A DNA stretch of 52,473 nucleotides, the filler included, from Sphacelaria rigidula (taxonomy: Eukaryota): assembly GCA_964200075.2 (NCBI GenBank). It is 4 parts of 4 records of this genome, joined end to end, with 100 filler letters (N's around TTAATTAATTAA, not from the genome) between each part and the next. Parts side by side here need not be neighbours in the genome. Positions count along the whole stretch, not along the records: positions 39,433 to 52,473 come from CAXNAA020003211.1; 3 more parts are not named here. One strand, given 5' to 3'. The notes under the pieces are model-generated. The model was not told the DNA's origin and made no database searches. It saw only the letters and a list, made by a program, of their open reading frames with translations. Position numbers and translations under genes: made by a program. Each line of letters opens with the position of its first letter. Position 1 is the stretch's first letter. This document shows positions 14,570 through 52,473 of this stretch, piece after piece.

Positions 14570-17500
14570 CTGCAAGGGTTAAAAACGGTAGGCCGCCCGC
14601 CAGGGCGTCCGTCGCCGTAGAGTGTGCGCCGTAGGTAAGCGTATCCAGGAATAGATCAGCAGCGGCGTGGCGCGAGAGATGCTGCGTCCTTGGTACCCTC
14701 TTCGCGAACATTAGACGCCGTCGGTGCACCCCGTATCCCTCTGCTTCATCTCCCAGGCGCTTGCAGATCGCTTCGTTCTGAGTGTGTCGTCAGCGGACCG
14801 CGCGAAAGTGCGCCGTCGGCGTTTACTCAGAACAATGAAGGTCTATTTTTGCTTTCTGGCGATTTGTGTCACCCCGAATGATATTTAACTGCTGCGTTTT
14901 CTTCAAATTCATCACAACATAGTTATGGAAAGCGTATGTAGGCGAGTGTGCCTCAACATCATCTGGGGTGGCGGGGGCGTGGAATTGTGCCACCGGGTAG
15001 CAGTGAGGGTAGTTAGTCCCTCATAGCACCAAAACTGCAGGGCTCAAACTCCTGTGGGTATAGCCAGACCAGAGTGTTCTGCCATAGCTAAGGTGAGACA
15101 ACCATTTCTCCCTGCTGATGAGTTCTAGGCCGCGAGGCTGTGTTCGTCGGGGTCCTTAACAAAACGCGGCACGATTCACTGCCGTGTTGAACTCCAGACA
15201 AAAACGCGGTCTCACCATTTCAAATAAGTCGAAGCTCGTCGGCAACGGCATGCTACCCGCCAACAAAAACCACCTCGGGGGCACGAGAACCGAAGACCAT
15301 CACTCCGTGTGCAAATGTGTCTACCCACCTCGCGCTGCATAGAGCTGGGCTCAAGCAGCCACAACACAGCCCGCGGCACTCGCCTCATTATTTGCATCCA
15401 CAAATAAAACGATTCTGGGCCCAGCTTGTCCACTTTATTAAAATTGGCGAGTACCACGAATGACAGATCCTCCGGTAGGCTGTGTGCACGCCTGTTAAAC
15501 CACGAGATGGAATAGAACCGAGAGGGGTAGAGGGGTGATCAATTTCCTTACAGGTGGACCACAACACAAGGGCCGACATGGGTTGTGTACGGATGTAACT
15601 GTTAGATACTTTGGGGGGGGGGGAGCCATACGCGTATACTTTCCTCGGAAATGTATGTCCGGAAATGCTTTGCGGAGGACACAGTCGAAGTTGACTGTAC
15701 GATGTATTCTACATAGAACAACACCGCACAGCAGACCCGATACGACGTGAGAACTGCTCAGTCAGGTTCCAGTCAAGCATTTTAACTGGAAAAATTAATG
15801 CTTCACCACAACGTTTCGAGCCGGTATCAGGGAACCGTGGGATACAATATATCTCCCATGAGCCACGACTAAGCATGCCCCCAGTCGTCCATCAAGTGCC
15901 AGAGACTCCAGAAGGTCAATTACCGTAAAGCTCTTCTCTCTGTATTATTCATCCTGGCTGTGGCATCGGTAGCTGTGACCCCCTCAGATGCGGCAGTCCA
16001 CCTGCGATCCTCATAGAAGTTCGTCTGGTACGTCCAAGGGAGCAAGACAAGGCTCTCCGAGTAGTGATTCACGTGCTCCGGCGGGATTACCTGCAAATTT
16101 TGTTTTTTGTTTTGTGTGCGTTTCCTGATCCATTCTTGGGTTCAACTTGCTACAACTTGCTGAGCTGGAGATAATCTCCTGCGCTTCCCTAGGGTTCGGA
16201 ACGAAGGTTGTCCGCACTGATACCAAGGATACCGGGGAGGATTACGACTATGCAGTACCGTTTTCAAGCCCCGGCTCAACGCAATGACCCGCGATGTTCG
16301 GCGCAGATACAGAGAGCATCAGGTTGGCAAAACCTTGGGCTCAGACAGCCTTCTTGCGCGCTCTGTGTGACCCTTTGCGCGCCCACAAACAACACTGGTT
16401 TCAAGTACATACTCACGTGTCGGTCTGCCAGAAGGTAATCCACGTACGGGGCGCCGCTTGTGCCCGGAAAAATCAAGTAGCTGGCCTGTGCCAGCGTCAG
16501 AACACGACATCCGGTTCCGTCGGCAAGGGTAAGCGCTTTTACCCCGCGCAACTGTTGCTACTGTAGTAGGCGACTACGTCTGATCGAACTCAAAGCAGAG
16601 TGACTATTGCACAGCCCTATATAGCAACCAGTCGGACAACTCGCTGAACCTAGCAGCACTTACGATGTGTATGACACGTTTCCTTGACGGTCCCATACAA
16701 ACACTTTTCGAAGATGTAGATTGCTGCAGTTCTGATCGCGTTCATATCGCCCGCTACACCAGCGAAGTTTACCTGTATAGGCGCTGGTCGTGCAGCTGCT
16801 ATTTCGCTCCTGCCTCCCAGCGTATGTCCCTGAAGATCCAACAATATATTTACGCCGTCTCCCAGGATTTTTGCGGACGCCTCAGCGTGGCCCACGGGAT
16901 ACAGATCTACAAAGGAAGACGCGAGCAACTGGATGGATTCGCGAACTGCTGAGGTCGTCCCCGTTCTGCTCCTATTCGTGGCGTTACTGGAACTGTCTTC
17001 ACGGTCGCTGCTACTTCCCCCCCCTCCATAGCTGTATGCTGAATATCTGAGCGAGACGCCCACGAATTCCGGGGCGGCACCGGGGGCGAGATGGAGGAGC
17101 ACATGTGCACGATGGGGGTGGATATAGGGACGGCGTAAGCGAGGCAGCGAAAGCGATACATTCCGTGTGCATTTTTTTACATTTGGTGAGCCCCTGGTAT
17201 CCTCTTCACCGTATTTGTGACAACCGTGTCCCATATTTATTCTGCAAAATTGAGGTACCGACTCGTACCAACCACTTACTGCTTGTTGTGACCGTTTTAA
17301 TTTTACATCCAAACGCCGTATCAAGCTTTCTGGCGGATTTCACGAGAATGGCGCAATGTCATCTGCACTGCCCGACCGAAACACCTCCGCGCTTTTCTTG
17401 CTCGCACTTCCACTATCGTTTGCACACCGTCCCGGCCCTAAACTTCACAGGAAAAGTATTTATTTTGTGTCGTCTGGTCGCATCCGCCCACTTTGCATAC

Positions 17501-20500
17501 CTGCAGCAACTCGCTAGCGTGCTATGAGTGATATCCACATCACCAGCGGAGTGAAATGCCGTCATTTCCCCTTCATCTGCTTTCTCCACTGCTTCGATCA
17601 CCGACGGCGGCCGTTGCCACTGCCTTCCACCGCCAAACGCGCTCCGCCGCCCCCCCCCTTGAGAATTATTGACGGGCGTCGTAGAAAAACGTTTCTGCCA
17701 AACAAATGCCCCTTCCATCATGTGCGCCGTTGGATGCTCACTGAAGTCATGCCCAAGGAAACCTATGTCGAGAGTGGGTGCCCTTCCTTTCCCCATATAA
17801 ACTCCCCTTTCTCTACCCCGGTTAGTACTGTCGTCAGATTTCGCCTCGCCATCTCTCATGGGATGTATGTCTACCCCAGCATTTCCTGGGTATGTGCGAT
17901 TTTCAACGGATGCACGATAGTGCTCATCGTATTCCACACCGCTTGGCATATCCGTTGTTTTTTTTGTGTATCTTCTGGAGTGAGCCTCCGCGATTTTGCG
18001 GCGCCACTTGGCGTCAATGGGATAGGGCAGCAGGAGGGAATCGAACGGTAGCAGGGACGGTGGGCGTTCGGCTCCCAGCTGGTGCATGTCCACCTGCATA
18101 TGTTGTGTTGTCGGCGATATTCGTTTTCAGCCGCAGAATCGACGAAGGTTGTAATACGACAAATTACAGTAGTTGACGAGAGCGAACAAGATAGATGCAG
18201 CGGAGTCGTCTAAACAAGGTGGGCAGTAGCAAGTACATTTTCCCGTGGGGGTAAGCAGGGTAGGCATGGTACAGTGAGAACCGGGAACGCGAACGATTAA
18301 CGAAATTAGTACAAGTGTTGCGGTGAAGGTGAGGAACATGATCGATGTGCGAGGCATACTTTTACTCCGACACACAAGACAGCTTGAGCCAGGCAGCGCA
18401 GCTGTGCCAATCAGTGCATGGCGTTACCCGAGTGTGACTCACTTCTCTCTTGAGATCGGAAAGAAGGTTCTCCCAGTCGCGCCAGTCGCACGAAGCCTTA
18501 CGAGCCCTTCAGAAATTGCATATGGGGCGTACATGTAGAAGGAACAATATCATCAGTCGGTGTGGCATAGGTTTGATGTAGCAGATCATGCAGGGCGGGT
18601 TCAGCGTGGGGACAGGAATAAACGAGCAAGCGAGTGTGCAACATAATCTCCAACAGCGACGTAGAGAGAGAAGGGCGAAGTGGCACGCAGTTTCTCTTTG
18701 CCAGGAGGACAGCTCAGGATATCTGATCCGCCAATATTCCTTGGTCGACGGCCGGCGTCACTCCCGACCCTTTGGAGCCGAGGAACTTTTGGACATGGCT
18801 AACGTCACGGGGCGGATTTAGATTTTCTGGTGAAACGTGGTCCTTAGAATTTTCCGGAAATTTATTAACTAAGGGGTACACACTGAACGAAATGACACAC
18901 AGTTTTCGGATTGGTCAATGCTCTTGGCTGGTTGCTCGGCTGATTTCTCGGATTGGCCGAAGATAAGCTGGATCGGCAATGACGTCATTCATTCTGAGTA
19001 TTTTTTTCTCATGGACTGACGTCATGTCTCAATTATTTTGAGAAACATTCTTGCCGAGGAAAATTCGAAAAGATATCTCGGTCGGTTAAGATTGCGACGT
19101 GATATTGTGACAAAATATATCAGATTATGATGAGTCGGCCAAAAACACGATACACAAAAAAAGACGTGACATTTGATATTATGAACTGCGAGTATCGTCC
19201 ACCCGGCATTGCAGAGAAATGCGTCTCACCCGTGTCTATGGGTTGAGTAAGGGTATCGGGGCAAGAGTCGAAGGTGAAAGCATTGGCGGGAAAAACTCAC
19301 GCATGCACAGTCTTGCACTGCGGCTTCAACACCGCCAGTACAGTCCTGTGATCACAACGGTGTGTTACGTAGACATCTACCCTGTAAGGTCTGTCGATTT
19401 TGTACCGAGCTTTACACTGCAGTAGTGTATCACTCATGTTTTGGTAATTGACACTATGTTCTGAGCACACCAGAAAAGGAAACGAGCACCCACAAATGCT
19501 CCTGGTGGTCCACCGCTCGTCTGTCAGGTGCACGCAAGTCTGCCGCAGCTTCTTTGCGGGCAGAAACACGATGGTTTCTATGTTGGTATCCTTCCGTTAG
19601 CCTCGCGTGTTTCACCCCGATGGCGTTACGGTGTGCAGAGATTTTCCGCCTAAAGTTGCGGCGCGAATTTCTTCGCACATGCCAGGACGTGCATATGGAC
19701 ATCTACATCGTGGCATACCATGGGGATTTCAAAGCTAAACAAAGAAATGGAAACGGTCCCCTGCATGATCGATTGTCGGCAAAATTTGGACCTTAAACGG
19801 ATAGGCTTGCGAGCGGCGTTCCCCTGGGGATCTCTGATGCGACCATGGTGAGATCGGATCATTCGCCGTACATTTTCCTATTGATGTGGACATTTCAACT
19901 CTGAATCAGTGAACGCTCACTTGTTCAGGTATTAAATGTCCGCTCGTGGACCAAAACAATCGCCGTGAAAGCATGCAGAAACATCAGACACACCAGCCGA
20001 TGGGTATACATTCCCGCGTATAGGCAGCAGAATATGTTGACTTGCCTATGCATGTTAACCATAGTGTCGATGTAGACATCTCGTTCCCCATTTGCCCCCC
20101 CCCGCGTTGGTTTCTCCTTCACTTGTGCCCCCAGCAGCGCCAACACCGCCCGGTGTTCTTCCTTGGCTAGCGTATGATCGCCCATCTGGTACAAAGCAGT
20201 CCCCAAGTTATTTCTGATTTAACAACAAAAGAGAGCATCGAGGATGTCGAGAAAAACTGATTTACTCGTGGGGGAAACAGGCGAATCTCAACCGGATAAG
20301 GTAAGTCGCACTCGAAGCGAACCGAGCACTCTCTTCGACTGGATCAAAACTGCATGTACCGCCGCACTTACTCGCAGCACGAACGATTTCGCCAATTATT
20401 ATTTTTTATTAATTGGTTAATTAGTTTATTTATCGCACTTTGAACCCCTCCTCTTTATCAGGACGAGTCCGTCGTCTCAAGGGATCGAGCTATCTCTCCC

Positions 20501-35827: not shown

Positions 35828-38800
35828 ATACACACACCTTTTGAGCCCCGATATGAGCCTCCCTCGATCTCCTCTCGCATTCTCGGTCAATGCGGTTCAA
35901 TCTCCCTCCAAGACGTTTCTCCAGAGCAAGTATGGTGTCGGGTACATCGGCTAACCCTAGTGTACACACCGGAGAAGTGCGTGATCATCAAAAATGAAAT
36001 ACAATTTTACTCCAATACTTCAGACGGAACAGGGAACGGGCTGAATCGAAATTGAGATGCTCGAACTTGGGAACAATCAATGCGACCGGCTTGAGTGGAC
36101 ACGTGCAGCGTGATAGCTGGTGCTTCTCACAAGACGCTCGAATCCTTTCAGTATGTTGGACGGCTGAACCTACTGTACCCTACCTTGCGCGATAGTAACA
36201 TCACCCCGCAGCCTGCCAAGAGCGTCCTCGTGCCCGCTTGCTTGGATCTCCATCTGGTATTTTGCGTGTGCAAGATTTTGATTTTTTTGTGAAAAACAAG
36301 GCGACTTTTATACTCTCGAACGGCTGCTACGCAATTCTTCTCCGCTGTATTTACTCGTCGCTCGTTTCTTCCTTCTCTCTCGGTAGCTCATATTTTTCCG
36401 TATTGAGGAACATATCAACGACCCAGCCCCCCAAGGGGAACTCGAAGCAACAAAACCCCTCGCTCGAAGTCACCAAGTTCTGGCAACTCTGACGCAATTC
36501 GAATACGGGTCCCAAACGTCTCCAAAACGGCCGCGGCCGAGGCGCGTTTGTGACATACAGCAACCATGGTCTCTGTCACGGGCGCGATTCCCGAATATCC
36601 CTTCGCTTGTCGTGGGTATGAGCGACGGACGAGCAACAACACAGAAGTGTTGTCAGCTTCGAAATCGACAATACCGGTTGTACCGCCGGAAAAAACGTTC
36701 GGGATCCGGCGATCCTCGTTACCTCCGCGAGACGACGGTCGACTTCTTCTCTGGTGTTGCGGGAAAGGTGCGCAGCATCCTGTGCCGCGTCGCTCAGCTT
36801 AGTTCGAACATGCGCTTCGATCCTTTGCCACAACTGCGAGACGCAAAAGGACAAGCCAGGCGCACGGTCAGCAAGCCGAGGATGGAAGCGTCCCAGTATT
36901 TGTTGTCCACGTTACATCAAGGCATTCTTCACCAACATTGTAATTTCAGGTAGTAATAGGTCGGAGTGTCCGCCTTTTATCCTTGTCTAGGTTTTTGTGC
37001 CGTCCAGTACTTGCAGTCCCGCCAGGGTCGCAAACAAAACCTCCCAGTGGAAGATAAAATGTTTGTGCGTGTACGTTCTGCCATAAACGGTACAAGACGA
37101 CGACTGTCGACCCACCCGTTCCTCCGCTGCGGAGGCTGCCTCTTCTGCTGCCCCCTCGGCAACAGATTTAACCTGTGCTGGGCTGACCAAAGGAACCGCC
37201 ACCGGTGGCGGCATTGGAGGCGGCAATTCCACCGCTTTCTTTTCGGCCGCAGACTGTCTTCTTCGGACCTCCTCGAGCTCTTCTAACAGATGCGCCTGTC
37301 CCAATCGATGATGACATTCGGTTGGACGTCATCGTAACACAGTGGAAGATCTTGTGGTAGTGGATGTGTCAAAATTGGAGACTAATAGTTTTCGGTGTTT
37401 TCTTCAAAGTCTCTGATTTCCGTTGTTGGAAGCGTGAGGAAGTAAGTAGCAATACGAGTTTGTTTGACTGGGTTTGTTTGACGAAGTCGATACGGTGCGG
37501 GAGTACCCATCCATCCACGATGTCAAGATGTGTGGCATGCCCTCGGGGAGAACGGGGCTGATCTCTCGGCATAACAGACTTATCCCGAGGAGGGGGTAGG
37601 GCTCGAAGTGTGTCGAGGAAAAGAGTGGGTGGTTCGCGTGCTGGGTTTTTCGTTTTTATGTGCGTAAAGGGTGAACATGCACAAATACACCTGCTGCGTC
37701 ATGGATCCACAGAACGATCATTTTCTTCTAGCTGTTGACACACCAATGAAATATCTGAGCCGATTTGTCGGCGGCAGGAAATCACAGGGCAAAAGTTGTC
37801 AAGCACGCATCCGGTAGGAGTATCTGCGCTCTTTGAGACGAGCAAATCAAATGTACGTATGTATACATCACACGAACCAACTGCACGGGCGCGGCTGTTG
37901 TCGACATCTCACCCTGACGGGTGCAAGGGCAGTGGCCGTCGCCGTTTCGGCGGCCTTGAGGGTCGCTCCCACCGCCGCCGACAGGTCGGCCTGCGTGATC
38001 CTGTCACCGAGCTCGCCGATCGCCTGGTGCTGGGTCTGACACCGCCGTGTGAGAACGCGGCTGTCCTCAGCCAATGACTCCATCGTGGCATCGGTTCGGG
38101 CGCACCAACCCTCGCGATCTGCTCGCCAGCCTTCTATTTCAATGATGCTGCTCCTGAAGTGGACGTCGCGGTGGGGTGTGCACGTAGCGACGTCTCGGCA
38201 CAACTGCGTCGGTTGTTGCAATGCTTGCGGTGTAAACTGTATGTGGGTTTTATTTTCCCCCCTCGGACTCACAGGATAGTGGTGAAGAAGTGAGCGAGTA
38301 GAGCCCGGAACAGGGCTCGGGGCAGCGCTCGGAGTACTATGTGCTGCCTTTGCTGTTCGTCTACATATGCTGTATATATACATGCGTACAAATTTTCCGT
38401 TCACTTGTTTTCCCGGGCAGTGCTTACTCATGTTGAAAGTTCAAGAACGACAACCGTTCGCCTAGGGCGCGGAACGAGAAAATTCCATGGTGTAAAAAAA
38501 CAAAATCCTCAGAGAATATGCCGTTTGTTTACCTGTAACTTGAGTACGTTTCCATCCCGTCACCATGATGGGCTTCACACCGGATCCGTCAACGTGGGAC
38601 AATCGACCAACAGGGTTTTCCCATGGGCAAATGCTTGTCAACAAATGTCTGGGTACCACACCTGTTCCGTCTCCCGTCTGCCTGGATCTGTTCGAGGACA
38701 GCGTCTTGGGACATGGCGGCGCCGTCATACTTGCGAACAGTTTTCCCTAGGCCTGAAACTTCCGTCGTAAGCTCTTCGATTCGCTGCTTTAGGGCGTCAC

Positions 38801-38834
38801 TTGCTCGCTCCGCGACGGAGACTCGTTGATCCAC
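29318..38834 (-). CDS. Hypothetical protein with N-terminal coiled-coil and long acidic/Ser-Gly disordered C-terminus; 5' end not resolved
   Basis: Eleven phase-consistent GT-AG exons: 38834-38662, 38153-37913, 37295-37116, 36833-36723, 36253-36184, 35956-35838, 35063-34986, 33477-33290, 32497-32297, 31868-30689 and 30337-29318 (stop). Heptad-like segments (DALKQRIEELTTE, LLEELEEVRRRQ, DLDKAIRAIRDRIKRLEE); no recognised domain. Confidence 0.75.
33721..34011 (+). mobile_element. tRNA-derived SINE copy
   Basis: Head CGACCCGGTGATCTAA, B box GGTTCGAATCCC, body GACGAAAGTCGACGTGTGGTGTGGGAGTGTTG, end GGGGAGGGGTTGAAG. Confidence 0.65.
34209..34691. mobile_element. Foldback MITE (near-complete ~480-bp palindrome), PIF/Harbinger-like ends
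   Basis: Arms of ~235 bp pair along their whole length (CTGCGTCGTTTTA / TAAAACGACGCAG; TTCGGCCGAACT / AGTTCGGCCAAA; GTCCAAGAGCGGTCAAG / CTTGACCGCTTTTGGAC). Ends GGCCGCTT...AAGCAGCC flanked by TAA / TGA. Confidence 0.8.
35775..35837 (+). repeat. Imperfect (CA)n/(CG)n microsatellite at a splice donor
   Basis: CACACGCACACATACGCGCGCGCGCACACACACACACACACACACATACACACAC, directly abutting exon 35838-35956. Confidence 0.9.
37372..37608 (+). mobile_element. tRNA-derived SINE copy (diverged, head lost)
   Basis: TCTGATTTCCGTTGTTGGAAGCGTGAG, GTTTGACGAAGTCGATACGGTGCGGGAGTAC and GAGGGGGTAGGGCTCGAA are the reverse complement of the 14067 / 20395 copies. Confidence 0.6.
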
Positions 38835-39271
38835 CTACTCAACGTGGGTGTGCGCGCGAGTGATTGACGTGTTCTTCATTCAGTTTGTATAGGTTTGCCG
38901 ATACGAGATGAAGAGTCACAATTGACCACGAGGCGGTCACGCTTGCTCGGTGGGATTCTCTTTACGGTTCTACTACATAGGCGAGAGGAAGGCGACAGGG
39001 TATGGATCTGCATAGCGCGTAAGTATACCACGGTACTGTATCGGACGCAATGCGGAAGCAATTCCTCCTCAACAAGAAGAAAATGAACCTAGCGGGAACG
39101 AAGCACTGGAACATCTACCGTTGCTACTTGGCCGTCACCCAGCGCGGCAAAAGTTGGGCATCCACAACTAAGGTGGTGATAAAAGGATCGCGAAGTATTG
39201 TATAGCCAGCACTTTATGCACTTACAGCTACGATAGAACACCTACATATCCTCTTCGCCCTGTAGCCGGTC

Positions 39272-39332
39272 GCCCCGGTGGCTCAGTTGATAACCTCGTA
39301 ACCTTCTGATGGTTGAGTTGGGGGGTTCGATT
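39272..39332 (+). mobile_element. SINE tRNA-like head cut by contig end
   Basis: GCCCCGGTGGCTCAGTTGAT (A box) ... GGTTCGATT (B box); same GCCCCGGTGG start as the SINE family; no clean anticodon arm. Confidence 0.6.
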
Positions 39333-39432
39333 NNNNNNNNNNNNNNNNNNNNNNNNNNNNNNNNNNNNNNNNNNNNTTAATTAATTAANNNNNNNNNNNN
39401 NNNNNNNNNNNNNNNNNNNNNNNNNNNNNNNN
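39333..39432. other. Artificial contig linker (N44-TTAATTAATTAA-N44)
   Basis: Stop cassette at 39377-39388. Confidence 0.97.
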
Positions 39433-39723
39433 TGTGGGGAAAGCACTGTTTTAGGCTTGAGCCTCATCTCAAAGGTAAACCTCAATTCGCACAATTTGTT
39501 GTTCTTCAGTGTTTTTGGGTTGAAACGGAGGCGAAAAAGATGATTATTTACTGTGTGGACCACCAGTAGCGCAGTTGCCGGTGCAGTATAACGACCGCAC
39601 GAGTGGGGAGGAGGGAAGAGCTCAGTTGAGTCGATTTCCAAGAATATTTTGCATCATGACGTATTACCATTGATCCACATCGCCGTTCCGCACTCCTGCT
39701 TTGACTCGAATACCTGTATGTAG

Positions 39724-42333
39724 GTGTCCGCGTCTTTCCCCTCGACCAAAAAGTGGACGTCAAGACGCATCTCCTCGCGCTAAAGCTGTTTCGGCCTCAT
39801 CGATGTTTGGACAAGCACAGCGGTGACGTGGTCTTCAAGTGGATCATACAAGTGCTGGCGCAGCATGGCATACGCCATGAGGATATCCCCGGCGCGGTGA
39901 CGGATGCCGGGTCCGACATCCGGAGTGGGGTGGTGTCGGCATGGTCTTGGGAGTGGTGCTTTGCCCACCTCGTCAACCGCGCGACCATTGACGCCACGGG
40001 AATGTCGCCCGCGAAGGATCGCTCCAAGAATGTTCAGTGTCGCGAACTACTGGAGCTGATCAAACGGATGGTGGAGCACTTCAATAAGCCCGCCGTTGAC
40101 AAGGTTAGATATCATGGAATTTGTATAACAGTCTGCGTGCTCCATGTACCGGTGCCATCTCCAGTCGCTGGGAAGTCACGTTTATTTATCCATGGCTAGT
40201 TCTTGCATTCGTAGGTGACACTTCCGATTACTCCTTTCATCTTCTTTCGAGTGCGAATGGTGGTTACAGTAACATCCGCGAAGCACAAATCGTTCTCGGT
40301 CTGCGATATGTATGCACAACCTCATCACTGAAGTTGCCTCGACGCTGACTCGTCTGTTTTTTTCTTGGAATTCCTTTGCGCGTAACCACTGTTATGAGCA
40401 GATTGCCCTGGAGGATATCATCGACGAAGTGTCGGGAGGAGAGGGCTCCACCGCAAAGCTGTCGCAAGCCGTTGCCCAGCGCTGGATCAGCGTCTTCCAG
40501 ATGCTGCTGCGTGTCCTGCAAAGGGAAGACGCCCTGGGGACATTTCACTTGGCCAAGGGGGAACCCTTTCCCTTGACGGGCAAAAAGGACGAAGTGAGCC
40601 GCAGATCGGTGTGTCGGTGCCTGGTATATCGGCGGCCCACATACCAACTTGCTGTTGCAATGCTTCGCGGACGCTGGCCGCTATAGGTTGACAAAACGTG
40701 ATTGATGTGACCCGTGATTCTTGGAACACCCCCACCCACCGTGGGGGCGAAATCCTCATCCTGCCCCTTTCCTTGATGGAGTTGTGACAAGATTGTTGTC
40801 TTGTTCGAGCGTCACTGAACGCCTGTTTTGTCCGCCTAACAACAATGTTGTGTTCTCAGCTTGAGAAGGAATACAGCATCGTCAATGACGTGAAGGGGGT
40901 AATCGTGTACTCACAAACGACGTACAAGTCAACCGCGCAGGGTAGACTACAACACCTGGTCCTAATCGCCACCACCGCCTTGGACCCGAAACATCCACTC
41001 AAGGTGAGGCATGTGCGGGCAGTCGGGCAGGGGTAAAGAGGACGTGGAACCGGAGGAGGTATGACCCTCCGCTGACTTGACAGGGATCGCGAGAATCACC
41101 CGCGAGGAGTTTGCACGGGGCGTGGCCAGGCGGTTTGTATCACTACGTTATGGGAAAGGCCTCTCGTCTCACAGCCATAGGTATGATATGACCATGTTCT
41201 TCACTCCGGGCGGGCGTGGTCTTAATTATCTGAAGAGGCTGAAGAATTCGACCGTCGGAACGCTGGGAGGTTTCACAAAGTCAGTAGAGGGCGTGAAGTC
41301 AGTAACTATTGGCCAGGTGAATGATCTCCTCGCGGGAGCGATGAGTAAGAGCAGGGCCAGGCCGAAAACGGCTCCCGTCGTGGTGGACGTCGAGTCGCGA
41401 GTGGTGAAGCGATAAAAAGCCGCCACCGGCGCAGCTGTCGATCCACGGCGAGAGGAGTTCGCCACGGAGGGCATCATGGACTCGAGCAGCGACGAAGAGG
41501 GGAAAGCTGCGAGCACTCCCGAGACCACTGCCGAGGAAGAAGCCGGCAACCTAATCAAGGCATGGAAAAACGCCAAGGTGTGTGGTGCGGTGCGATGTAT
41601 CGTTTTTTCTGCATTGCACGTTCCCGTTCTTTGACTCATCTCCATGAAGAAAAACGCGACGCCAAGCATTGGGATTCTTCCCCCGGCATTTCAATGTAGC
41701 AAGACGCACACATCATCATTGCTCCACCGCATACAATTCATTGGTTTGTTTTTTTACAGACGCATGTACCGAGAAGTTCAATTACATACCAAAAATCAGA
41801 CTGTGATCATGGCGAGAGTGCAGTAGAAATATAGGACGCTAGACTGTAGGTCGCTAGCGAACCGTATCCCACTGCTATGCGTTCAATATCATATTTGTTT
41901 TCGTCGCTCCGGGTTACAGATCGGGGGAGAGGAGGAGAAACTGGACGGTGTCGACTATTGGCGGGCCCACAGCAAAGAACACTCGCCTCACCTTCGGTCC
42001 CTGGCGCAGGCGGTGTTTGGTACACCTCCCTCCGCGGGAGTAATGTAGCGTGACTTCTGTGTCGCGGATATGTTTCAGCCCCGCAAGCGTGGTGGCGTCG
42101 ACCCCGCCAATCTCGAGATGGCCTTGTATCTGCGGGGCCAGTTCGACGACATCCCTGTAGAAATCCCACAGCTAAAGGATGAGCAGGCATCGAAAGCCGT
42201 GCCAAGTCGGTTTACGGACAGAAAAATGCTGGAAGAGGTTGAGGTGTTGAACTTTTCTCTCGAGCCCGAGAGTGATATGGGGGAGGAGGAAGATTGTTCG
42301 TGGGAGAACGAGTACGGAGCGGTTCCGAATTAG
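39724..42333 (+). pseudogene. Intron-containing hAT-superfamily transposase, inactivated
   Basis: Exons 39724-40103 (VTDAGSD...WCFAHLVN: second Asp and CxxH), 40402-40593 (QRWISVFQMLLR, the RW motif), 40860-41577 (stops at 41034 and 41413, frameshift near 41040-41076) and 41920-42333 (YWRAH...LRSLAQAVFGTPPSAGVM*RDF...RKRGGVDPANLEMALYL: hAT C-terminal domain with TAG at the catalytic Glu position, 42046-42048). Confidence 0.85.
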
Positions 42334-42410
42334 CTTGTTGGAATTCGTCTGACCCCAACGTGCAGTGTGTGGGTTCCCATTATCATTTTGAGTGGGAAAG
42401 TAGGGCTGTC

Positions 42411-42685
42411 GCGCCCTGGCGGTCCACTGGTCACCATTAGGGAGGAGATAGCGAGGGTTCGAATTCCGATGCGTTGAGATTCTCCAAAATGATTGATTCC
42501 CACCGCCGATAGCGTTGGGACGAAAGTGAACAAGAGGCGATTGACTGAGTATGTTTGACGAAAGTTGACGATGTGCAGAAGTGCTGACCCAATACGCAGG
42601 GTTAACATGCAAGGTGTGTAAGAGGGGAAGTGGGTTGATCCCTCGAGACCGGACTGGTCACGCGGAAGGGGAGAGGTTCGAACTG
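42411..42685 (+). mobile_element. tRNA-derived SINE copy
   Basis: Head GCGCCCTGGCGGTCCACTGG, B box GGTTCGAATTCC, body GTTTGACGAAAGTTGACG..GTGCTGACCCAATACGC..GATCCCTCGAGACC, end GGGGAGAGGTTCGAAC. Confidence 0.7.
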
Positions 42686-42959
42686 CGACAATAAGTATAC
42701 TTGGGGTACAACACAGGGTGAGATATACTACTGTAGTAACGTGATGGCGTGCTGATAACGTGACAGTTCTTTAACAACAGGTTGTAAGGAGAGATGCTCC
42801 TACGACAAGTTTCTTTGATGCTGTAAAACACTGGATACCGATGAAGTCCCGTAACACTAGGCGGCTCGTTGTCGCTGGGAACGGCGATGGACAACAAATA
42901 TATCATGTTGGTGCTTTGCCGATGCCATCACTCGCCACAACTTGAAATCAGTCCCGGTC

Positions 42960-43512
42960 CGCATTGATCATCATGGAAATTGGCTACCGTGTCCGATTTC
43001 CTCGCATGTGGGCGCAGTGTGCATTGACGGAAACCCTTGAAATCTATTGGCATGGACAATGCATATTGATGGAAAAGCCCAAACTCTATCGCTACCGGCC
43101 ATGTCTATCGGTGGGCAATACCAAAATCTGTTGCCGTTGGCCATGTATATCGATGGAATGTTTGGAAAATCCATTGTCACTGACCATTTACATTGATGGA
43201 ATTTTGCGGAATCCATGGCGAAGGACCATGTATATTTATATGAATTTTTCATTGTCCATTTCCATGAACGATGTGTATCGATGGCATGGACCGAAATTTA
43301 TCGTTACCGACAAGTGCACATCGGTGTAATATTTCACACATTATTGCCAGAAAAGATGTATATCGATGAGAACATCACCCAGTACATTGTTACCAGCAAT
43401 GAATATGGGTAGGGGTATGTTGGAGTCACTATTCTCCGCAATGGATATCAATATGATCACCACCGTAGCTATTTTTGCAGCAATAGACCATTACCATGTC
43501 TATTGTCCAGGG
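42960..43512. repeat. Degenerate motif-rich repeat, probable old DNA-transposon subterminal array
   Basis: Recurrent CATGG / ATCGATGG / ATTGATGGAA / CATTGTC motifs; no clean TIR or TSD found. Confidence 0.35.
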
Positions 43513-45223
43513 TGTGGATATTTGACTGTTAAACGCCTTTTGATGGCTTGCTACGTGTTTGGACGAGCACATGGATCGTGTTTCGCCCCTGATTCAATGG
43601 GAAATGCGGATGATGAGCCAATTTGTCTGGAAGGATCACCGCATCTTGTTCAGAGCTGCGTCAGTTGGGACTAAGTCAAAAGGTACGGACACGTTTGTAG
43701 GCAAAGTACGGCATTAAGCTTCGAGTGCACGATATTATCGAAGACTACAGATTGAGATGGTATTTTGCGTGGCGCGTTTGCTTTGTGTGAGTATGCTATG
43801 CCTGAAAAATACAGTTGACCGCACTATTGACTTCACTAAACTCGATTGAGACGTTGTCTTCGAGCGTCGACGTTCAGGGTTCTGCGATTTATCATTTTCT
43901 TTTGAGCCATGCCACGATAGGGGAGGAGGGGGGGAATGTTTGATTCCACGAATTAATGTGTTCATAGATGCCTCAAACGACCTGAACCACTCGCGGTGCG
44001 CTTGTATTTGAGTAAACGCAGTGTAAAGCAGAATGAATGAGCATTATTCATCGGGAGAAAGCGCGTTCGAACAACTGTTGGCTGCTTTCAACGGCGATTG
44101 AAGTGGAATTTCGTGGAAGAAAACGGCACACAATACCCCCCCCCTGTAGCATCCCCCTTTTGGGGAACATGACATTGCATGGTTACGTGTCCCTAACAGG
44201 GAGACAAAGGTAGCATGAATGTGATTGTTGGTGTCTACTATTTGTCAAACGTGCTTTCTACTTCGAGTAGTGCGGAGTTTTGGGGGTGCTGTGGAGTAGT
44301 CCTGTCATGGCTCGATACTCTAGCTGGGAATGGTGCCAGTTCAGTGGGCACTAGGCTAGCTGCTCAAACACAATCATTAGTATCGAAGCCATTGAGCTCG
44401 ATTTACTAGGTGGGAGTCAACCCACACACCAATGACCAGGCGCATGCCCAAGGTTCACGCCGGCGACAAGACGCATAAAATGCGTGTAGTGCGGGCTGCA
44501 GCACAACATGTGTTGCATGAAGGTCAGGCTTACATTTTGTGAAGGCCGAAGGCTCCTCTGAGATAGCAGTCCGAGATAGTGTTGATGCTTCTTGTATTAT
44601 TGGCAACCGGCTGATAGCTGCTGCGTGTGCGTTGAGATGAGTTCCCGAAAGACTGTGTCCGAGTAGGGGGGAACCGTCGAAATCAAACAGACTCAGAATG
44701 GCCCATGACCTGTCGGGCTAGACAACGCAAGAGTATGACACATGGAATCTACTTGACTGGATCATAACCGATAAATCCGGAACATCCCCCCAGCCTTTTA
44801 ATAAGGCTAAGCGAAAGAAACGTGGGAAACGAAGCCTGTGCATCAACACCTGAAAACAAAGAAACGAAAAAACCTGCGACTAATGTTGCATGGGAAAACT
44901 CGGTATCTAGTAGATAGGTAAACCCCGTTAGACGGGGGAAACCCTATCCGTTAGGAAAGGAAAAAAATCTCTAGCGCCCTTTCCAATCGACAGAAACCCC
45001 AGACAAGTGCGATCGCTGTCGTTTTCCCGGGATCTCAGTTAGACTGGAGAACGATTAGCTAGTTGGCTTCATCGCGCGTCGACACCCTAGATCAGTTACA
45101 CTGAATTCCAGGGTAGTGCGGGGCTTTAACCACATCCAACTTACGTTGGAATCGCTAAAAACAACCTTTCCACAAACTCATCAATAATAGTTACAGGAGT
45201 GCAGCTTTTGGGAAGTGCCTGCC

Positions 45224-45422
45224 TGTAACTACCGATGTTTTATGCTACGAATAGAGCCCACGCGCCTTGGCTCGTAAATATATTGGCATGTTACAAAATG
45301 GGAACCAGGCAAGGCCAAGGAAGACAAAGAAAAAGAAGAAACAAAAACAGGCACACTCGCAAGTCACACTGAACAGTACGGTACCAACAATTCTTCTTGC
45401 TTATATTACAACCCCCTTCCCT
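45224..45422 (-). repeat. Polypurine tract and start of 3' LTR of the Gypsy element
   Basis: About 75 nt after the pol stop, the minus strand reads AGGGAAGGGGG (45422-45412), T, then TGTAATATAAG (from 45410). The nearest matching TTACA end is at 45224; the LTR end is tentative. Confidence 0.5.
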
Positions 45423-45496
45423 GTGCAATGATATCCTGTACCATTTCAAATATAACGACTATCCCTAGACATTCCCACTCCAGTTCAAAGTAGGGG

Positions 45497-47260
45497 TCAT
45501 TTTTCCCGTGTTAAACAATCTAGTTCCTGGCGGGATAGCTCCTCCCAGTCTCCGTCTTCGTATCGTACTCGCCAAAAGCGACTCCCGTAGTCATACACCT
45601 GACCCTTGACCTTGAGACCTCCAAAGTCTTTCCAGAAAGTAACACCTATTAGGAAAAGCTTCAAGGCGTCACTGCGCGACAGGGGAGCGGGGCGCTTCTT
45701 GGAGTGCGGGGGCGGATTGGGTGCAATTGCGGGGTTGTACAGGTGCCAAAGTGCGTGGAAAGCGTCTAGTTCCAGAGAGGAAAAGCTGTTTCGGAGCTGG
45801 CTCTCTGGCAGCCAGGCTGACACCTTCCCTTCCAACGACCTGGCCTTGTATTCCCACTGTTTCGTGCCGGCCACGGAGTTGATCTCTCGGCGGTCCACCA
45901 AAGTGACGAACTCCTGAGTTTGGGGAGAAGCAGTGTTGGATTTACAATCTGAACCCCATACATATTGAGCGCACTCGTCGGCTATCGAGTGCCTGAGATG
46001 CGGTGGGCGAACATGGAAGGGTTTCACGTCGGAGACTGCTACTCTACGTGTACGGCGTTTGCGCCCCTGCATGACTACTACCTCTACACTGAGGCCAGTC
46101 ATCAGCACTTCCCTCACTCTCCAGGGGCCCGTTTCCTCGCCTTACCGTCCCGATGTATCGTGCTGTCTGATTCACGTACCATGACCAGATCACCTTCTCT
46201 CGCCGCCACTCCGGGAGAAGGTCTCAAGATTGAGGCGTTCATCTTTGCACGAGTCGATGCTTTCGCGGCGTGTCTTTTGTCAAGAGCTAGACGTACCTCC
46301 TTGAAGTTTTGTCTACGTTACTCCACGAAGACATCCAGACCTTTACTTGATTCCTTCTCCTGGTTCAGGGGGATGAGCGAATCTAGAGACGTGCGAGGTT
46401 CACGACCGAACAGAAGCTCAAAGGGGACATGTCTGAGGGTAGGGAAACGTCTGGCAAGGTACGCTTGATCCAGAGCGCTGGGGAGACGTACTCGTCCCAT
46501 CTCTGGGGCCACGACCTACACAGCTCTGCCAGTATTTCTAGTAGCCATCCCCCCAGCCTCTCGACTGCTCCTTGGCCTCTGGGGTGATCAGAGGGCCCAA
46601 AAGCAATGTCTGCTTTCAGCCCTAAATTCCTTTCCTCCATCACTGCGGATTTTGCGGGGGACGCCGAAGGTCAAGCAGAGTTCAGCAAGGATGCGAGCTA
46701 CACTTTCAGCCTGCTTCGTTTGAAGTGGGAAGCCGAAGGGAAACTTGGAGGCTCGGTCTACGTTTAAAAGAATGTACTTGTTGTTCGTAAGCGATGCAGT
46801 GTCTATGCTCAGCAGGTCCATCTCCAACTCTTCCCATGGTTCTTCGGCTCGTGCCGCTGTCATTGCGATCTTACAGCTATTGGACCTTTTCCTTCTTTTA
46901 CAGCTGCAAGATAACACGTATAGTCTGGTATCCTTCACAATTGACTGCCAGAAAAAGCGATCTCGCATCAAAGACAGCGTGGCTCCTACTCCGATATGAC
47001 CATGTAGGGAGTGTACCAACGCCAAGATGTTAGGTACCATAACCGAGGGGATGGCTAGCAACGGGTTTTTAGTGTCCTTCGTTAGCCACGCCACACCTTG
47101 ATCGTCTAGACTGTATTGGTGTGCAACGTCATCGCTTACCCCAATCTTGACATCATTTTCCGTACTGGGTTCCTCTGCTACCTCGTCGGCACTCGCCACA
47201 ATCTCGCAGTCTGCATGCAGATGCGCAAGTTTTCCCCAACGAAAAATTAGCGAAGCAAAC
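45497..47260 (-). mobile_element. Decayed Ty3/Gypsy LTR retrotransposon: integrase with GPY/F-like, chromo-like and Tudor-like C-terminal modules
   Basis: HHCC zinc finger (HSLHGHIG...FFWQSIVKD...CSC), rve core (PWEELEMD, NVDRASKF, FGVPRKIRSDGGKEF, HPRGQGAVER, WDEYV, SPFELLFGREPR), GDLVMV...GPWRV, then chromo-like (FVTLVDRR..WEYKAR..SAWLPESQL) and Tudor-like (GVTFWKDFGG..KGQVYDY..WRVRYEDGDWEEL). Broken by frameshifts near 46620, 46420 and 46130 and a stop at 46318-46320. Confidence 0.9.
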
Positions 47261-47705
47261 CCGACTACTGTAGTGCATCTATCCCTGTGCTCAACTCGTG
47301 CTCTATGCTGCAGGGTTGCGGTCGTAGCCAAGAATGATTTGGGTGGAGTTTGAACTATCATGGGAACAGTTGTTTGAATCAAGCTCCCATTTTGTTTTCA
47401 ACAATTGTTTTGTTTTAATGCCCCGTTTCAACCTTTTTTTAATCAGGCGTTCTCCATGCGCCTTATTCCCGTCCTTGTTTTGGCGTTGTATCGGTATCCC
47501 CTCACGATCCGCGCCGTCTGGCACGCGGGCGAGACGACAAGTTGGGCACCCGAAGTTTCGTCAATTATTAAAAAAATGAAGCTTTTCCTGAGTTCTTGAG
47601 TTTCGAGCTCACAACCTGCACACCGACTGCACGAGTCACCGTCCCTAATCGACCACGTCAAAACGTTCACTCTCCACATAGTCGTGTCGGCACAACGGCA
47701 CAGCT

Positions 47706-50700
47706 TTGAACGAGGTGGGAGAGACGCTGTCAGAACGGAACAATTACAATAAACTTTATATGTTCATGGGGATCATCGGCTCCATACAAGATCGCACGAA
47801 AAAAAATAATGCAGGAGCCGAAGCGATTGCAGAGGAGCTTACGAAGGTGAGTGGAAATCTGAGAACGTGCTATTTTGGAGCTGGGTGGACACCGACACGT
47901 TGGAATGATTTCCTCTTCTTGTCGAGTGGGTTCCAGGACATTTCCCCGTTCTCCGGTGGCCGTAGTTTCTATTTTCGCCAAACAAGAACTTGAGTTCAAG
48001 AACAGTCGGGAAACGGTCAAATACCGAGACATTCGCCATATTTTTCTGGATTTCACCCTTCCCGGACGAAAATTCTTCTTTGACCAAAATGATAACTGCG
48101 GCCACCGAGGAAGGGGGAAATGTCCAGGGCCCACCTCAATGAGTAGCGCAAATCATCGCAAGGTGTCAAATTCCGCCTAGCTCTCTGTTGAGGGGCGGAA
48201 CAATGCAAGAGTTATAACAAGGCAGTTTTCCGGGTTTTGATTTCAATTTGTTCTCGAGTATATGGGAGTATATCGTTTCACGGGATCAACACTGCTGCTG
48301 TACCGCACTGCCGACTCCACGAGGGCGTGGCGTGAACGGTATGACACCGCCCATGATGCCACACCCTATAGTACGCTCCGACGCGGCAGTCGGCTGCAGG
48401 AAGAGGACACACGCCTGCTCTTTCGGTTCTCGCTTCACTCGTTGCCAAGGCTCGGGTGTGTGGATATGTTTGTATCCACGCGTGAGCGGGGGTGACCAGC
48501 CCATACACTCCGCGCCCCATTGCGGCAACGTACGAGAAGCTGAGGTTAGTTGAGGTTGCTTGATTCGGATCTGGGGTCAGCGAACCACTTCCTTTGTTTG
48601 ATCATTTCTCACTTTCACTGCTTACACCCACGGGTTCCGAATACATCAAATGAAGATACCAGAGAACGGTTGATGGTGTTGAACCACGTCCGATTGCCCT
48701 GCCTGAACTCCGTATTGTTCGTCCACTGCACTTTGTCAGCGCGCGCGGGGTAACTTGAATCGCGTGACGATGGCCCAAGCAAAAACAGAAGTGTTCGACA
48801 GTAACATAACACATGTTTCCTACGCCCGTCAACGCGAGCCGGCACCCCCGCCCCCTCTTGAGAACGACAGCTGTACGTGCGGGTCCCGTCCATGACGACT
48901 CTACGGCAATGGAAAAAAGTGGTTGTGTCGACATCGCCAGAAGCGATGAAGGCCATCGCTTGGGCGTTTCAATACGACAACCGTGGCGTTGACTCGGGAG
49001 CCATATCCCTGGCTTTTCTCAGAAGCAAGCGGTACGCAGACCTGTATGATAAACCCCAGGCCCAATCCATCGCGATCAATATTCTCGTCAGGTACACACC
49101 ACCCGTCTAATGCGGCTAGATAATCAAATGACCCTTAGTTTATTGCATCTTGTGTCAGGGTCAATCGCTGGGGATTTCGACGTACGATGCATCGCGTAAC
49201 GCACCCGAACCCGACGCCCACAAAAACACAGACGCCGACTGTGCATCGTTGAGGCACGCGCTGGAGCGGCCACCCGCTGATCACACACCGCTCAACATGG
49301 ATAATGATATGCTCATTTCACATCGGTGATGATGACCGTTTTCAGACGCTAATTTTTCTCATCAACATCGGACTCTCGTACATTCAACATCCCGTGGAAG
49401 GGTCTCCGAAAACGAGAGCACCAGACAGAGTTGCCGGTGGGCGGGATATCAGGTTCGCCACATGCGGTTTCCCTTGGTCCCGTCACGCAGCACCTAACTG
49501 GTGAAAAGTCTAATGTACTCTTCACAGCACACATTATATATTCGCGCTGCCCGCAGGTTCCAAACGGCGAACAAGACGAATCCTTAGCGAGTGACTGGGG
49601 GCGTATCTCCACAGATGCACAAACAGCCGCAACCCTCCTGGAGCATTCAGAGAGGCAGATCCCTCGTGAAGCGTGGACGCACGTCTTCGAAGAGAAAGTT
49701 TGCATCAATTGTAACACGCGCGTCGACTGCGGTGGACCGTAACCGCTGTCGTAGGCTACAGTATTTCGGAAGCAAGGATCGCGCGTGCAGCACATGTTTG
49801 TGTCACGCTTAGACTTGCGCCCCTTACGCTAGCAACCTTTCTGGCATCATTCCACCTTGCATAAAAAGCGCAGCGTTTAAGCAGGTGGCGTAGATAGCGC
49901 AGCGTTTCGGCAAGTAGCGTAATCGATACTAATTTTTTAATGGGGGGCATAAGAGAGCTTAAACTCTCCAGTAGAGTTGACAACAATGATCTAAATGTCG
50001 ACGTGGTGTGATATGTTGGGGTTGAACTCTGCTATCATCGACCGCGGCCGGGTCTGATATACCAGTCATTCAAACTGCCGGGTTGACTTTCGTTTCTTTG
50101 TTTCACTCCATATATCTAAACATATATTCACAGTGTGTAGTATGCATGTAGTGATCGGTGGATCTGCATCCGGTCAAAAATGGCGCTTGTTGGATATTGC
50201 GAGCATATTTGAGCATTAAACCCATCTTGCGAGCATGGATCGTCGAGCACATATTTTGTGAAATTCGAGCATAGATTGCGCTCCACGAGCCGAATCTTTT
50301 GTGTAACTACTAGCATTACAAAATTACTTTACTAGCATGAGGGGCAAAAGCGCTGTAACACTCACGGGAGGCATTTTGCGCTCCGCGAACATCATCGCGA
50401 CTAGGGTTGCTCGCGAGTTGACTCGCAGCACATACGGGCTGGAGGATTTCAAGCTGCACGTCACGGACTTCATCACATCAGTAGACAACAGCATAGAAGA
50501 GACACGGGCAAGCCTGCCCGAGGAAGAACGGAACGGAGCAGCCACGAAGGCGTTCGAAGATGTCTGTCTCAGCAAACCCCATCGGCGGCTGGACCTGGTA
50601 CGTGATCGACACACAAAAGTCAAGAGTTGAATGTTGGATAGTGAGTAATTCGGGTGATAGGTCGCCGAGACGATACGAACGTAAGGTGGATCGGACATGC

Positions 50701-51558
50701 TGCTATGATAAATGAATCCAAATCGCGCAGAACGGGCTTGCGACGCGCGAAATTGGCGCATGCCAGTCATGGGTACAACAAGGATGGTACACCCACGTGA
50801 TTGGGAGACAAGTGAAACATTTCCACGAGGTTGTTCACCTAGATTTTCAACCACGGCCCGTTTTCGCCGAAAGCACAAAGAGGGGCCATGAGGCGGTACA
50901 ACGATAGCTGGAGGAAGAGGTGGGACGAAGCCAACAACACCATCGCTCGCTTGAAGTTGGCGAACGCGGGCGACGAGGAAGGCGACGGCGAGGATGCTGG
51001 TGAATCGGAGGAGGATGATAGCGATTGTCAACAACCGGCTGAGGGCAGCCGCAAAAACGAATTGGGTTCCTCGTGCGACCCATCATCAGACGTCAGGTGA
51101 GAAGGGATAGCATGAATCAACCCGCAAGCCGTTTCGACGGTGTCGAGCACACCAGTTGACCTCCCGAAGTACAATGCTACCGTTCTAAGATCGGCACGTG
51201 TAATGATTGAAACAACAATCGCCTTACCTGGAAGACGGCCAACCGCTCGACACTTTCATGCCGTCCTCGCAATGGCAGATACCATTGCGTACACTGCGGA
51301 ATGAAGCACCAGACCTTCTGTGAGCTGCTTGTGCCCGTCTCCGAGGGTGCATCTCTTGCCGAGAGGAAGCGACGTTTCTGCCTTGTCTGCGAGGACGAGC
51401 CGGGGCGCCAGAAGAGGAAAGGGGACATAACTGACGGGGCCGGAGGCGGAGGGAATCCTAAAAAGAAGGAGAAGAAATCGTCACAGGCAGGGCAAATGCT
51501 ACCCCCTGCCGGTCCCACCGTGGAAAGCAGAAGGTGCGAGGATAGGTTGCCGTTGTGA
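47706..51558 (+). pseudogene. Degenerate multi-exon gene of unknown family with Cys/His clusters, possibly TE-borne
   Basis: Coding-like segments bounded by splice-like sites (to 47847|GTGAGT; ~48871-49091; 49557-49740 HVFEEKVCINC; 50337-50620; 50843-51096; 51160-51558 HCVHCGMKHQTFC...FCLVC). In-frame TGA at 51157 and 51208. A full spliced model could not be built. Confidence 0.35.
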
Positions 51559-52146
51559 AGACTGTGTCGTCGACTGCAGCTTACCTTTAGATTGCTCCCT
51601 TGGACGACGGTTGTGACAGCATGCATAAGTCGGTCGACATGCGACACTGGGACTGTCAAGCGCAGCTGTCTGTAGGTTCTCCCGTCTTTCGTTCAACCTC
51701 GCGCACTGCTCGACTATGAAAACCTGACGGTGCAGCCGCCAGCTTAACCACCGTAGTGGAACGCACGCCGAAGAAATACGCGGATTGACCCCCACCCCAA
51801 CGCCAGCCCAAACCTCCAGCCAAACAATGAACGGCTTTCCACCACGTGATGTTCGATTCCACAGTGCATGTAGGGCCTTGTTTACTCAACATAGACGACA
51901 ACAAACAGAAGCGTGAATATTCCAATCTGCTCAATATGAGGATATTTTGTCATATCGATTTTACGTGTCGGTTGTTACCCCCCCCAAACCAACCACTTTC
52001 TCGGGAGGGGCTGTATCGAAGAACACACGCTACACCCCGCGACGTGCGGATGACCAGCGCGCAACGAAGGAAACCTGACGATGCTATTGCGTGCTTGCGA
52101 CGTGATATTGTACAGGGCTCATCACACGAGCATACAGGAGGATAAT

Positions 52147-52473
52147 CTACTCCGCCGCCACTGCGCTCTTATTGACCAAGAAGAGCCACTCCCTGTGAAG
52201 AGACCGCCGAAGCTTATCATAGTCTCCATCGATGTCGAGAAAACAATGCTGAGCACGAAAAATGATGACAACAAGGGAAACTTCAGGCGGTTCGTTGAAA
52301 AGGTACTGGAAGTCTTGCATCCGATGGGCACCATCGCCTTTGCAGTCTCGCGGCCCTGGAATCAACACGGACATCGTATCCAAGGTATCACGGTCTGCAC
52401 GGTTCGTGACAGGCACAACCGCGGCATCGATGTTGCTGAAAACAGGGTAGACACATCTGAGTCGGTATCCGTC
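52147..52473 (-). CDS. 3' end of a hypothetical protein, open to the window edge
   Basis: Stop-free frame from 52473 to TAG at 52147 (DGYRLRCVYPVFSNIDAAVVPV...EVSLVVIIFRAQHCFLD...WLFLVNKSAVAAE*); globular-looking composition, no recognised motif. Confidence 0.35.
   Translation of the reverse strand, partial: DGYRLRCVYPVFSNIDAAVVPVTNRADRDTLDTMSVLIPGPRDCKGDGAHRMQDFQYLFNEPPEVSLVVIIFRAQHCFLDIDGDYDKLRRSLHREWLFLVNKSAVAAE

Follow-up and report, generated by a model that had tools for sequence, protein, structure and literature searches.

Among natural examples of transposons that choose their landing sites, the clearest are those in which a reader domain is fused to the integrase. In chromoviruses such as MAGGY and Tf1, a chromodomain carried by the C-terminus of the integrase directs integration to heterochromatin (10.1101/2021.11.30.470311). 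A survey of fusions between chromatin domains and transposons published in 2022 reported that Chromo and PHD are the commonest fused readers, ahead of the SNF2_N remodellers and the SET methyltransferases. Four Gypsy lineages have been described in Ectocarpus (Genome Biol 2025, PMC12477816): three of them carry putative C-terminal chromodomains, and the fourth, Gypsy-10_Ec32, carries a C-terminal Tudor and has a Tudor-bearing homologue in Tribonema minus. Targeted insertion was proposed as the role of these reader domains, and in the available part of that paper none of the Ectocarpus Gypsy lineages is related to chromoviruses or to Chronos. What is said here of published work relates throughout to the parts of the cited texts that were available. 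We analyzed a stretch of DNA of 52,473 nucleotides from Sphacelaria rigidula (assembly GCA_964200075.2), consisting of four parts of four records joined by filler letters and referred to below as the window, and focused on the minus-strand region containing the open reading frame (ORF) 45497..46141, which lies in the part derived from CAXNAA020003211.1. This region is probably the 3' end of the pol gene of a stramenopile Ty3/gypsy retrotransposon, in a copy that is dead and has lost its 5' part, belonging to a Tudor-bearing lineage of the Gypsy-10_Ec32 type, with an integrase tail composed of a chromo fold, a linker and a Tudor domain, which would tether integration in active copies.

The family to which this copy belongs resembles Gypsy-10_Ec32 in having a Ty3/gypsy integrase with a C-terminal Tudor and members in Ectocarpus and Tribonema, and the Ectocarpus and Tribonema proteins that we found fit that lineage, the two being matched by description. 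It differs in that a chromo fold is located between the GPY/F module and the Tudor, whereas in the available part of the Ectocarpus paper the Tudor alone is described for Gypsy-10_Ec32 and the term chromodomain is kept for the three other lineages. A preliminary description of this DNA had presented the architecture as one that was not known to have been described. Since a Tudor-integrase fusion has been published for Gypsy-10_Ec32, the architecture is at least partly catalogued, and only the tandem of chromo fold and Tudor appears to be unreported. The literature available gave no other Tudor in a transposon and no integrase combining chromo and Tudor, and the supplements of the Ectocarpus paper and of the 2022 survey may hold more. 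The chromo-Tudor tail is not a new kind of system: the Tudor-integrase was already known, and the cryptic chromo fold, hence the tandem, is the new detail, apparently unreported in the texts available.

As in the chromoviruses, the chromo fold comes straight after the integrase GPY/F module, and the same tethering logic is presumed. Unlike those of the chromoviruses, it has no Pfam Chromo match, its cage is incomplete, and a Tudor has been added. A chromovirus that had captured a second reader is an unsuitable frame for this lineage, because the available part of the Ectocarpus paper places the Gypsy lineages of this alga outside the chromoviruses. Host proteins with tandem readers of the royal family (the triple Tudor of SETDB1, the SAWADEE domain of SHH1, and Spindlin) show adjacent small beta-barrel reader folds, as does the present tail, but the Foldseek matches of the whole model to them are of low significance (E 6e-3 to 0.1, root-mean-square deviation (rmsd) 14-21), and these proteins contain pairs of Tudor with Tudor and occur outside transposon enzymes.

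The minus-strand ORF 45497..46141 is open from stop to stop and encodes 214 amino acids (aa). It carries, in this order, a G-P-W module, a variable spacer, the chromo-like module, a Pro/Lys linker and a terminal Tudor, followed by the stop codon. The two sequence strings previously quoted from this region lie within the open ORF: FVTLVDRREI begins at 45910, and the module containing FLIGVTFW begins at 45655. An exhaustive HMMER search gave 378 relatives at E<=1e-3, of which 130 reach E<=1e-10 and 12 reach E<=1e-30; the best 150 of the 378 were sorted into classes. Both modules are present and collinear in 39 of these 150 proteins, while another 39 end before the Tudor could appear. The Tudor only was found in 29 proteins having no room for the head and in 9 others in which it is preceded by other sequence; seven proteins show the chromo-like module with a tail after it, all of which look degenerate by eye, and 27 are of other kinds. 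No clean sister form carrying only the chromo-like module was found among these best 150 of 378, which is weak evidence since most of the matches are short fragments.

A second search started from the integrase core of P0155, an intact polyprotein, and yielded 37 proteins, on which three local module profiles were then run. At least 40% identity in the core was shown by 23 of the 37, of which 22 are matched by the GPY/F profile and 18 show the GPY/F, chromo-like and Tudor modules in this order. Among the other five, P0066, P0176, P0178, and P0177 end before or inside the modules, and P0180 matched no profile. In every one of the 18 relatives that extend beyond the GPY/F module, both modules are present, with the same order. 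None of the modules was found in the 14 distant relatives of the P0155 core, three of which carry an ordinary Pfam Chromo. The intact polyproteins, which are 1521-1647 aa long, combine RVT_1, RNase H, H2C2, and rve with the chromo-Tudor tail; the order reverse transcriptase, RNase H, integrase is present in P0153-P0155 and P0170-P0174, and the rve domain (PF00665) passes the cut-off in P0160 (39.6 bits) and P0155 (33.6 bits). The named members belong to Ectocarpus sp. CCAP 1310/34 (P0175, P0181, P0187) and Tribonema minus (P0161, P0169), and the protein nearest to the present copy shows 66-72% identity with it.

The mean frequency of the majority residue is 0.56 in the chromo-like module, 0.53 in the Tudor, 0.54 in the GPY/F module, and 0.33 in the linker. 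As judged from these alignments, the two modules are conserved to the same level as the GPY/F module, and their order is fixed in the lineage. It had been proposed that a whole retrotransposon lineage carries the tandem, and this is borne out by the related copies, which keep both modules. The distribution suggests a tail made of two royal-family folds in a fixed order, conserved between brown algae and a yellow-green alga. That the tail might be a one-off fusion, an artefact of the gene model or a host exon captured at this locus could be argued from the degraded state of the copy and from the fact that neither a second copy nor a long terminal repeat (LTR) was found in the window, but this explanation is ruled out, with next to no probability left to it, by the 39 collinear proteins among the best 150 of 378, by the 18 out of 18 core relatives reaching that far, by the abundance of the repeat (about 1,680 contigs of a single sequencing run map on the stretch), and by the publication of the lineage.

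Two observations were made on particular members of the family. In the Tribonema-type clade, P0160 (aa 1140-1235) and P0073 (aa 590-690) carry an extra module after the Tudor, which has no Pfam match; the nearest clusters in the ESM Atlas are Spin/Ssty and PTM/DIR17 Tudor (0.85-0.87), which serves as a lead only, and the integrases of this clade may end in a series of three reader-like folds. In P0161 (Tribonema minus JKP88DRAFT_281580, 380 aa), the chromo-like module and the Tudor come first and are followed by an HNH nuclease domain (PF13392, from precomputed annotation): the gene model is a merged one, or else the tail has been reused outside a retrotransposon.

The Tudor is the better defined of the two modules. 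The family PF21743 (PTM_DIR17_Tudor) matches aa 166-208 with an E of 1.6e-8 and 34.7 bits, as against a gathering cut-off of 27.2, and since the score repeats when the last 87 aa are taken alone (E 1.1e-8), the match is beyond chance. The same family matches 25 of the 37 aligned relatives at E<=0.1. In the AlphaFold2 (AF2) model built with the 37-sequence alignment, residues 155-210 have a predicted local distance difference test (pLDDT) score of 93-97 and form a helix, four strands (168-173, 176-185, 190-194, and 199-202) and a second helix. When the model was compared with 48,161 representative chains by VIA-align, 50 rows were returned, 36 of which fall on model residues 148-214 and are Tudor or SH3-like barrels (Z 5.2-6.8). 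Many of them are histone-reading Tudors, among which are Spindlin-4, BAHCC1 TTD with H4K20me1, SMN, PHF19, PHF20L1, SETDB1, RDM15 with H3K4me1, LBR, and MTF2, with Z values of 5.3-6.1 for Spindlin-4, BAHCC1 TTD, SMN, PHF19, SETDB1, RDM15, and LBR. The earlier assignment of this module to the PTM/DIR17-like Tudor domains is therefore upheld by a Pfam match above the cut-off and by a modelled SH3-like barrel. A Tyr or Phe is found at position 194 in 32 of the 37 rows, Asp196 in 33 and Trp199 in 32, and we take these three positions to be those where Tudor cages usually sit. Given the conservation of Tyr194, Asp196, and Trp199, the Tudor would be the likelier of the two modules to read a mark.

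Arrays of PTM/DIR17 Tudor domains also occur in host-like proteins: P0137 (1860 aa) has eight copies together with helicase-associated (HA) domains, P0077 (1186 aa) has six, and P0112, P0096, and P0101 have three each. These five proteins account for five of the nine members of the class in which the Tudor is preceded by other sequence. They share the Pfam Tudor family of the element and are among the best matches to its Tudor, but differ from it in having neither integrase nor chromo-like module, and the Tudor of the element may have been drawn from such a pool of proteins.

The evidence on the chromo-like module comes mainly from its predicted fold. AF2 run without an alignment gave an unusable model (mean pLDDT 50); with the 37 sequences, residues 78-135 reach a pLDDT of 90-96 and form two long strands (78-88 and 94-102), a third one that is short, and a helix at 122-135. 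The fold prediction suggested in the preliminary description thus gives a chromo-type and a Tudor/SH3 fold, with pLDDT values of 90-97 when the alignment is used. All 14 VIA-align rows falling on model residues 60-145 are of the chromo or chromoshadow type (Z 5.2-6.3). They include chromodomain 2 of Chd1 (five entries), Oxpecker, SUV39H1 (22% identity), Rhino, Chp1, HP1alpha, dHP1 (6mha, rmsd 1.9 over 51 residues), the chromoshadow domain of Chp2, and regions of eEF3 and GEN-1 which we assume to be chromodomains. At the sequence level the link is weak: the corresponding segment of P0036 matches the multi-chromodomain protein cpSRP43 with E values of 8.2e-5 and 1.1e-3 (single stretches reach only 0.36-2.1), CDYL2 with 0.14, and MPP8 with 0.18; CDYL2 chromodomains are the top four of the six matches of a 25-sequence family profile (A2), at E 0.03-0.06. 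The nearest ESM Atlas clusters, obtained with a language model, are Chromo (0.89, with 172 of 256 features in common), which is a lead only. The residues of the chromo core are kept in most of the 37 rows: W96 and Y98 in 35, G105 in 32, W110 in 30, D126 in 34, and H129 in 33. The module is very probably homologous to chromodomains and, to judge from its aligned residues, keeps the chromo core without the textbook methyl-lysine pocket. The chromo-like segment of the preliminary description thus stands as regards its fold in AF2 and VIA-align, and does not stand as a Pfam Chromo match.

The same comparisons bear on whether the tail has anything to do with histones. The chromodomains of cpSRP43, the protein that gave the best sequence match, have other proteins and not histones as ligands, and many of the VIA-align rows on residues 148-214 are non-histone barrels mixed among the others (VapX, TraI, the C-terminal Tudor of UvrD/PcrA, KOW, and CarD). 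According to the available part of the ECOD paper, the PTM/DIR17 Tudor family belongs to an SH3-like group in which both kinds of function, histone and non-histone, occur (PMC11836899). The tail might bind nucleic acid or a protein of the host or of the element (for example Gag, a tethering factor or proteins with methyl-arginine), or it might simply extend the DNA-binding region of the integrase. This is nevertheless unlikely, as the Pfam family matched is a Tudor family of chromatin-type proteins, the same type of Tudor occurs in the arrays of three to eight copies in host-like proteins, and positions 194, 196, and 199 are conserved at what are presumably the usual cage sites.

Several observations weigh against the reading of the region as the end of a pol gene with a chromo-Tudor targeting tail. 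Pfam Chromo (PF00385) was found in none of the 37 whole tails at E<=0.1 and in none of the 25 isolated segments at E<=10, and the chromo-like segment of the query has no Pfam match even at E<=10. The whole-tail family profile (A1), compared with the PDB, gave nothing relevant apart from a weak alignment with chain 7q5b of the Ty3 integrase (E 0.83), the other row being a spurious one (SSO0352). The VIA-align Z values of 5-7 are below 8, the limit named in the tool's warning about common arrangements, and by that warning the values of 5.2-6.3 on the chromo-like part do not decide the matter by themselves; Foldseek gave no match at E<=1e-3 with the whole model. In the chromo-like module, position 102, which we take to be the second residue of the canonical cage from its alignment with a Trp of CDYL2, is aromatic in only 22 of the 37 rows and is a Ser in the query and four other rows; the third cage residue (Tyr) has no counterpart in the family, which is gapped at that place, and the alignment does not extend to the first. 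In the Tudor, for which a candidate cage (F, Y, W, Y, D) had been proposed earlier, the putative cage position 173 (Phe) varies more than Tyr/Phe194, Trp199, and Asp196, being aromatic in only 18 of the 37 rows. A direct-repeat search on 38000-52473 gave no LTR pair, and the purine run 45412-45422 with the adjacent TG is an unverified candidate for the polypurine tract and the LTR start. Lastly, this copy is dead and 50-54% identical to the full-length polyproteins found, and it is likened to Gypsy-10_Ec32 by description and not by consensus.

The presence of two methyl-lysine readers, as claimed in the preliminary description, is unproven since the chromo-like module lacks the canonical cage, its second position being a Ser in this copy. 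Both modules might still be true methyl-lysine readers acting as a bivalent, combinatorial reader: they are adjoining folds of the royal family with equal conservation, an aromatic residue occupies the second chromo cage position in more than half of the rows, and the best Foldseek rows obtained with the whole model belong to SETDB1 and SHH1 SAWADEE, which are readers with tandem or triple Tudors, although their E values are 6e-3 or weaker and their rmsd is 14-17. The incompleteness of the chromo cage throughout the lineage argues against this, as does the relative orientation of the two modules, which is poorly predicted (predicted template modelling score (pTM) 0.46, linker pLDDT 64-77), and we regard such bivalent reading as improbable.

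The reading that we prefer is that of a tethering tail in which the Tudor would be the likelier reader of a mark. By analogy with the chromodomains of chromoviruses, the tail of active copies would tether the integration complex to marked nucleosomes and bias its landing sites; the Tudor would read the mark, and the cage-poor chromo fold could provide a scaffold, a surface for dimerisation or an additional weak contact. It is from this analogy that we infer chromatin-guided integration. Several Tudors read H4K20 methylation. In Ectocarpus, H4K20me3 is located on transposons and repeats (94.6% of the peaks), and H3K9me2/3 is scarce, according to the available part of the source (10.1101/2020.03.09.980763). 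On these grounds, the Tudor is favoured as the reader and H4K20 methylation as its candidate ligand, a choice which is tentative and may well prove wrong. A broader proposal is that the integrase is a multivalent reader, in which the cage-poor chromo fold and the Tudor, joined by a third Tudor-like module in the Tribonema-type clade, would recognise several marks in combination or the surface of a nucleosome, for example in the transposon chromatin of brown algae that bears H4K20me3. It is rather doubtful that this is so; if true, integration targeting of this kind would be without a described precedent in transposons. Concrete constructs (the chromo-like module, the Tudor and the two in tandem) are thereby available to set against the unusual repertoire of histone marks in brown algae.

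The features of the locus are listed in Table 1.

Table 1. Features of the integrase remnant and its C-terminal tail (positions along the window; aa numbers refer to ORF 45497..46141 unless another ORF is given).
Feature	Position	Strand	Evidence and remarks
Integrase H2C2 zinc-binding domain	46885..47052	-	aa 116-171 of ORF 46588..47397; Pfam PF17921, E 8.6e-11, 42.2 bits
rve catalytic core, first part	46615..46833	-	PF00665, E 2.2e-7, 31.5 bits vs 32.6 cut-off
Damaged integrase stretch	46130..46615	-	Frame breaks near 46615, 46422, and 46130; in-frame stop 46318-46320
GPY/F module (G-P-W in this copy), SH3-like, at the C-terminus of Ty3/gypsy integrase	46007..46132	-	aa 4-45; motif read
Cryptic chromodomain-fold module	45737..45916	-	aa 76-135; two long strands, short third strand, C-terminal helix; AF2, VIA-align
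Pro/Lys-rich linker	45677..45736	-	aa 136-155; low conservation; pLDDT 64-77
PTM/DIR17-like Tudor	45515..45676	-	aa 156-209; helix, four-strand SH3-like barrel, helix; PF21743
ORF stop codon	45497..45499	-	Sense codon in most other copies (contigs, place 45499)
Candidate polypurine tract and 3' LTR start	45409..45422	-	Purine run 45412-45422, then TG 45409-45410

The preliminary description had the rve core followed by one intact frame. This holds from the GPW module to the stop codon, which is open, but not for the rve core itself, which lies out of frame: the remainder of rve is in a different frame, in ORF 46383..46670, and the breaks listed in Table 1 separate it from the tail. In a tblastn search with the intact relative P0002, aa 4-342 match 47118..46132 and aa 349-558 match 46132..45506 in different frames, the frame changing from -1 to -3 at 46132, and translation of the 46142-47118 region shows stops inside the upstream integrase frame. 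Four public sequencing runs, labelled "algae metagenome" or with a coded organism, supplied contigs of other copies with which this one was compared. The contigs carry 29, 1, and 19 extra bases near 46615, 46422, and 46130, respectively, and nearly all of them have a different letter at the in-frame stop 46318-46320. A programmed frameshift at about 46132 was considered and is ruled out, as contigs from two of the four runs hold the 19 extra bases there. Upstream of 47118, no match to the reverse transcriptase, protease or gag of six relatives was found. Given the three frame breaks, the in-frame stop in the integrase and the 5' truncation, the copy is dead: it is a 5'-truncated, mutated member of a very abundant family, and the locus matters only as a pointer to that family. 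The approximately 1,680 contigs of one run, which map on 2.2 kb of this stretch, show the family to be highly repeated. Other copies' contigs run on across 45200-45607, beyond the coding end, and the repeat therefore reaches past the stop codon. A blastn search of 43500-47500 against the whole window gave the self-match only, and no second LTR or copy.

For the GPY/F module, besides the motif itself, there are the weak alignment of the family profile with the Ty3 integrase chain 7q5b and a Pfam SH3_Tf2-1 match in 2 of 37 relatives. The query sequence itself, compared with the PDB, gave two spurious rows (a lectin or storage protein) and nothing else.

Contig depth was uneven along the locus. 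In the DNA runs, the bins covering the coding end of the Tudor (45496-45643) have a summed contig depth 4 to 20 times that of their neighbours; more families or genes may have this part in common than have the remainder, although such depths, as the tool warns, do not rank the parts of a gene. Just upstream of the integrase remnant, at 47259-47352, the summed depth reaches about 267,000-286,000 in two runs, versus about 1,000-5,000 beside it, and since the depth is high and there are loose ends on both sides, this segment is apparently a very abundant short repeat of another kind. No Rfam match was found on 44000-49000.

Elsewhere in the window, an ORF at 39705-40199 that looked transposase-like by eye was dropped, as it has no Pfam match. 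The base composition of the window is even (about 25% each), with 274 N. Two minus-strand ORFs in 16650-18126 match glycosyltransferase family 41 (OGT-like), with E values of 1.8e-10 and 1.2e-5, and are probably exons of a host gene.

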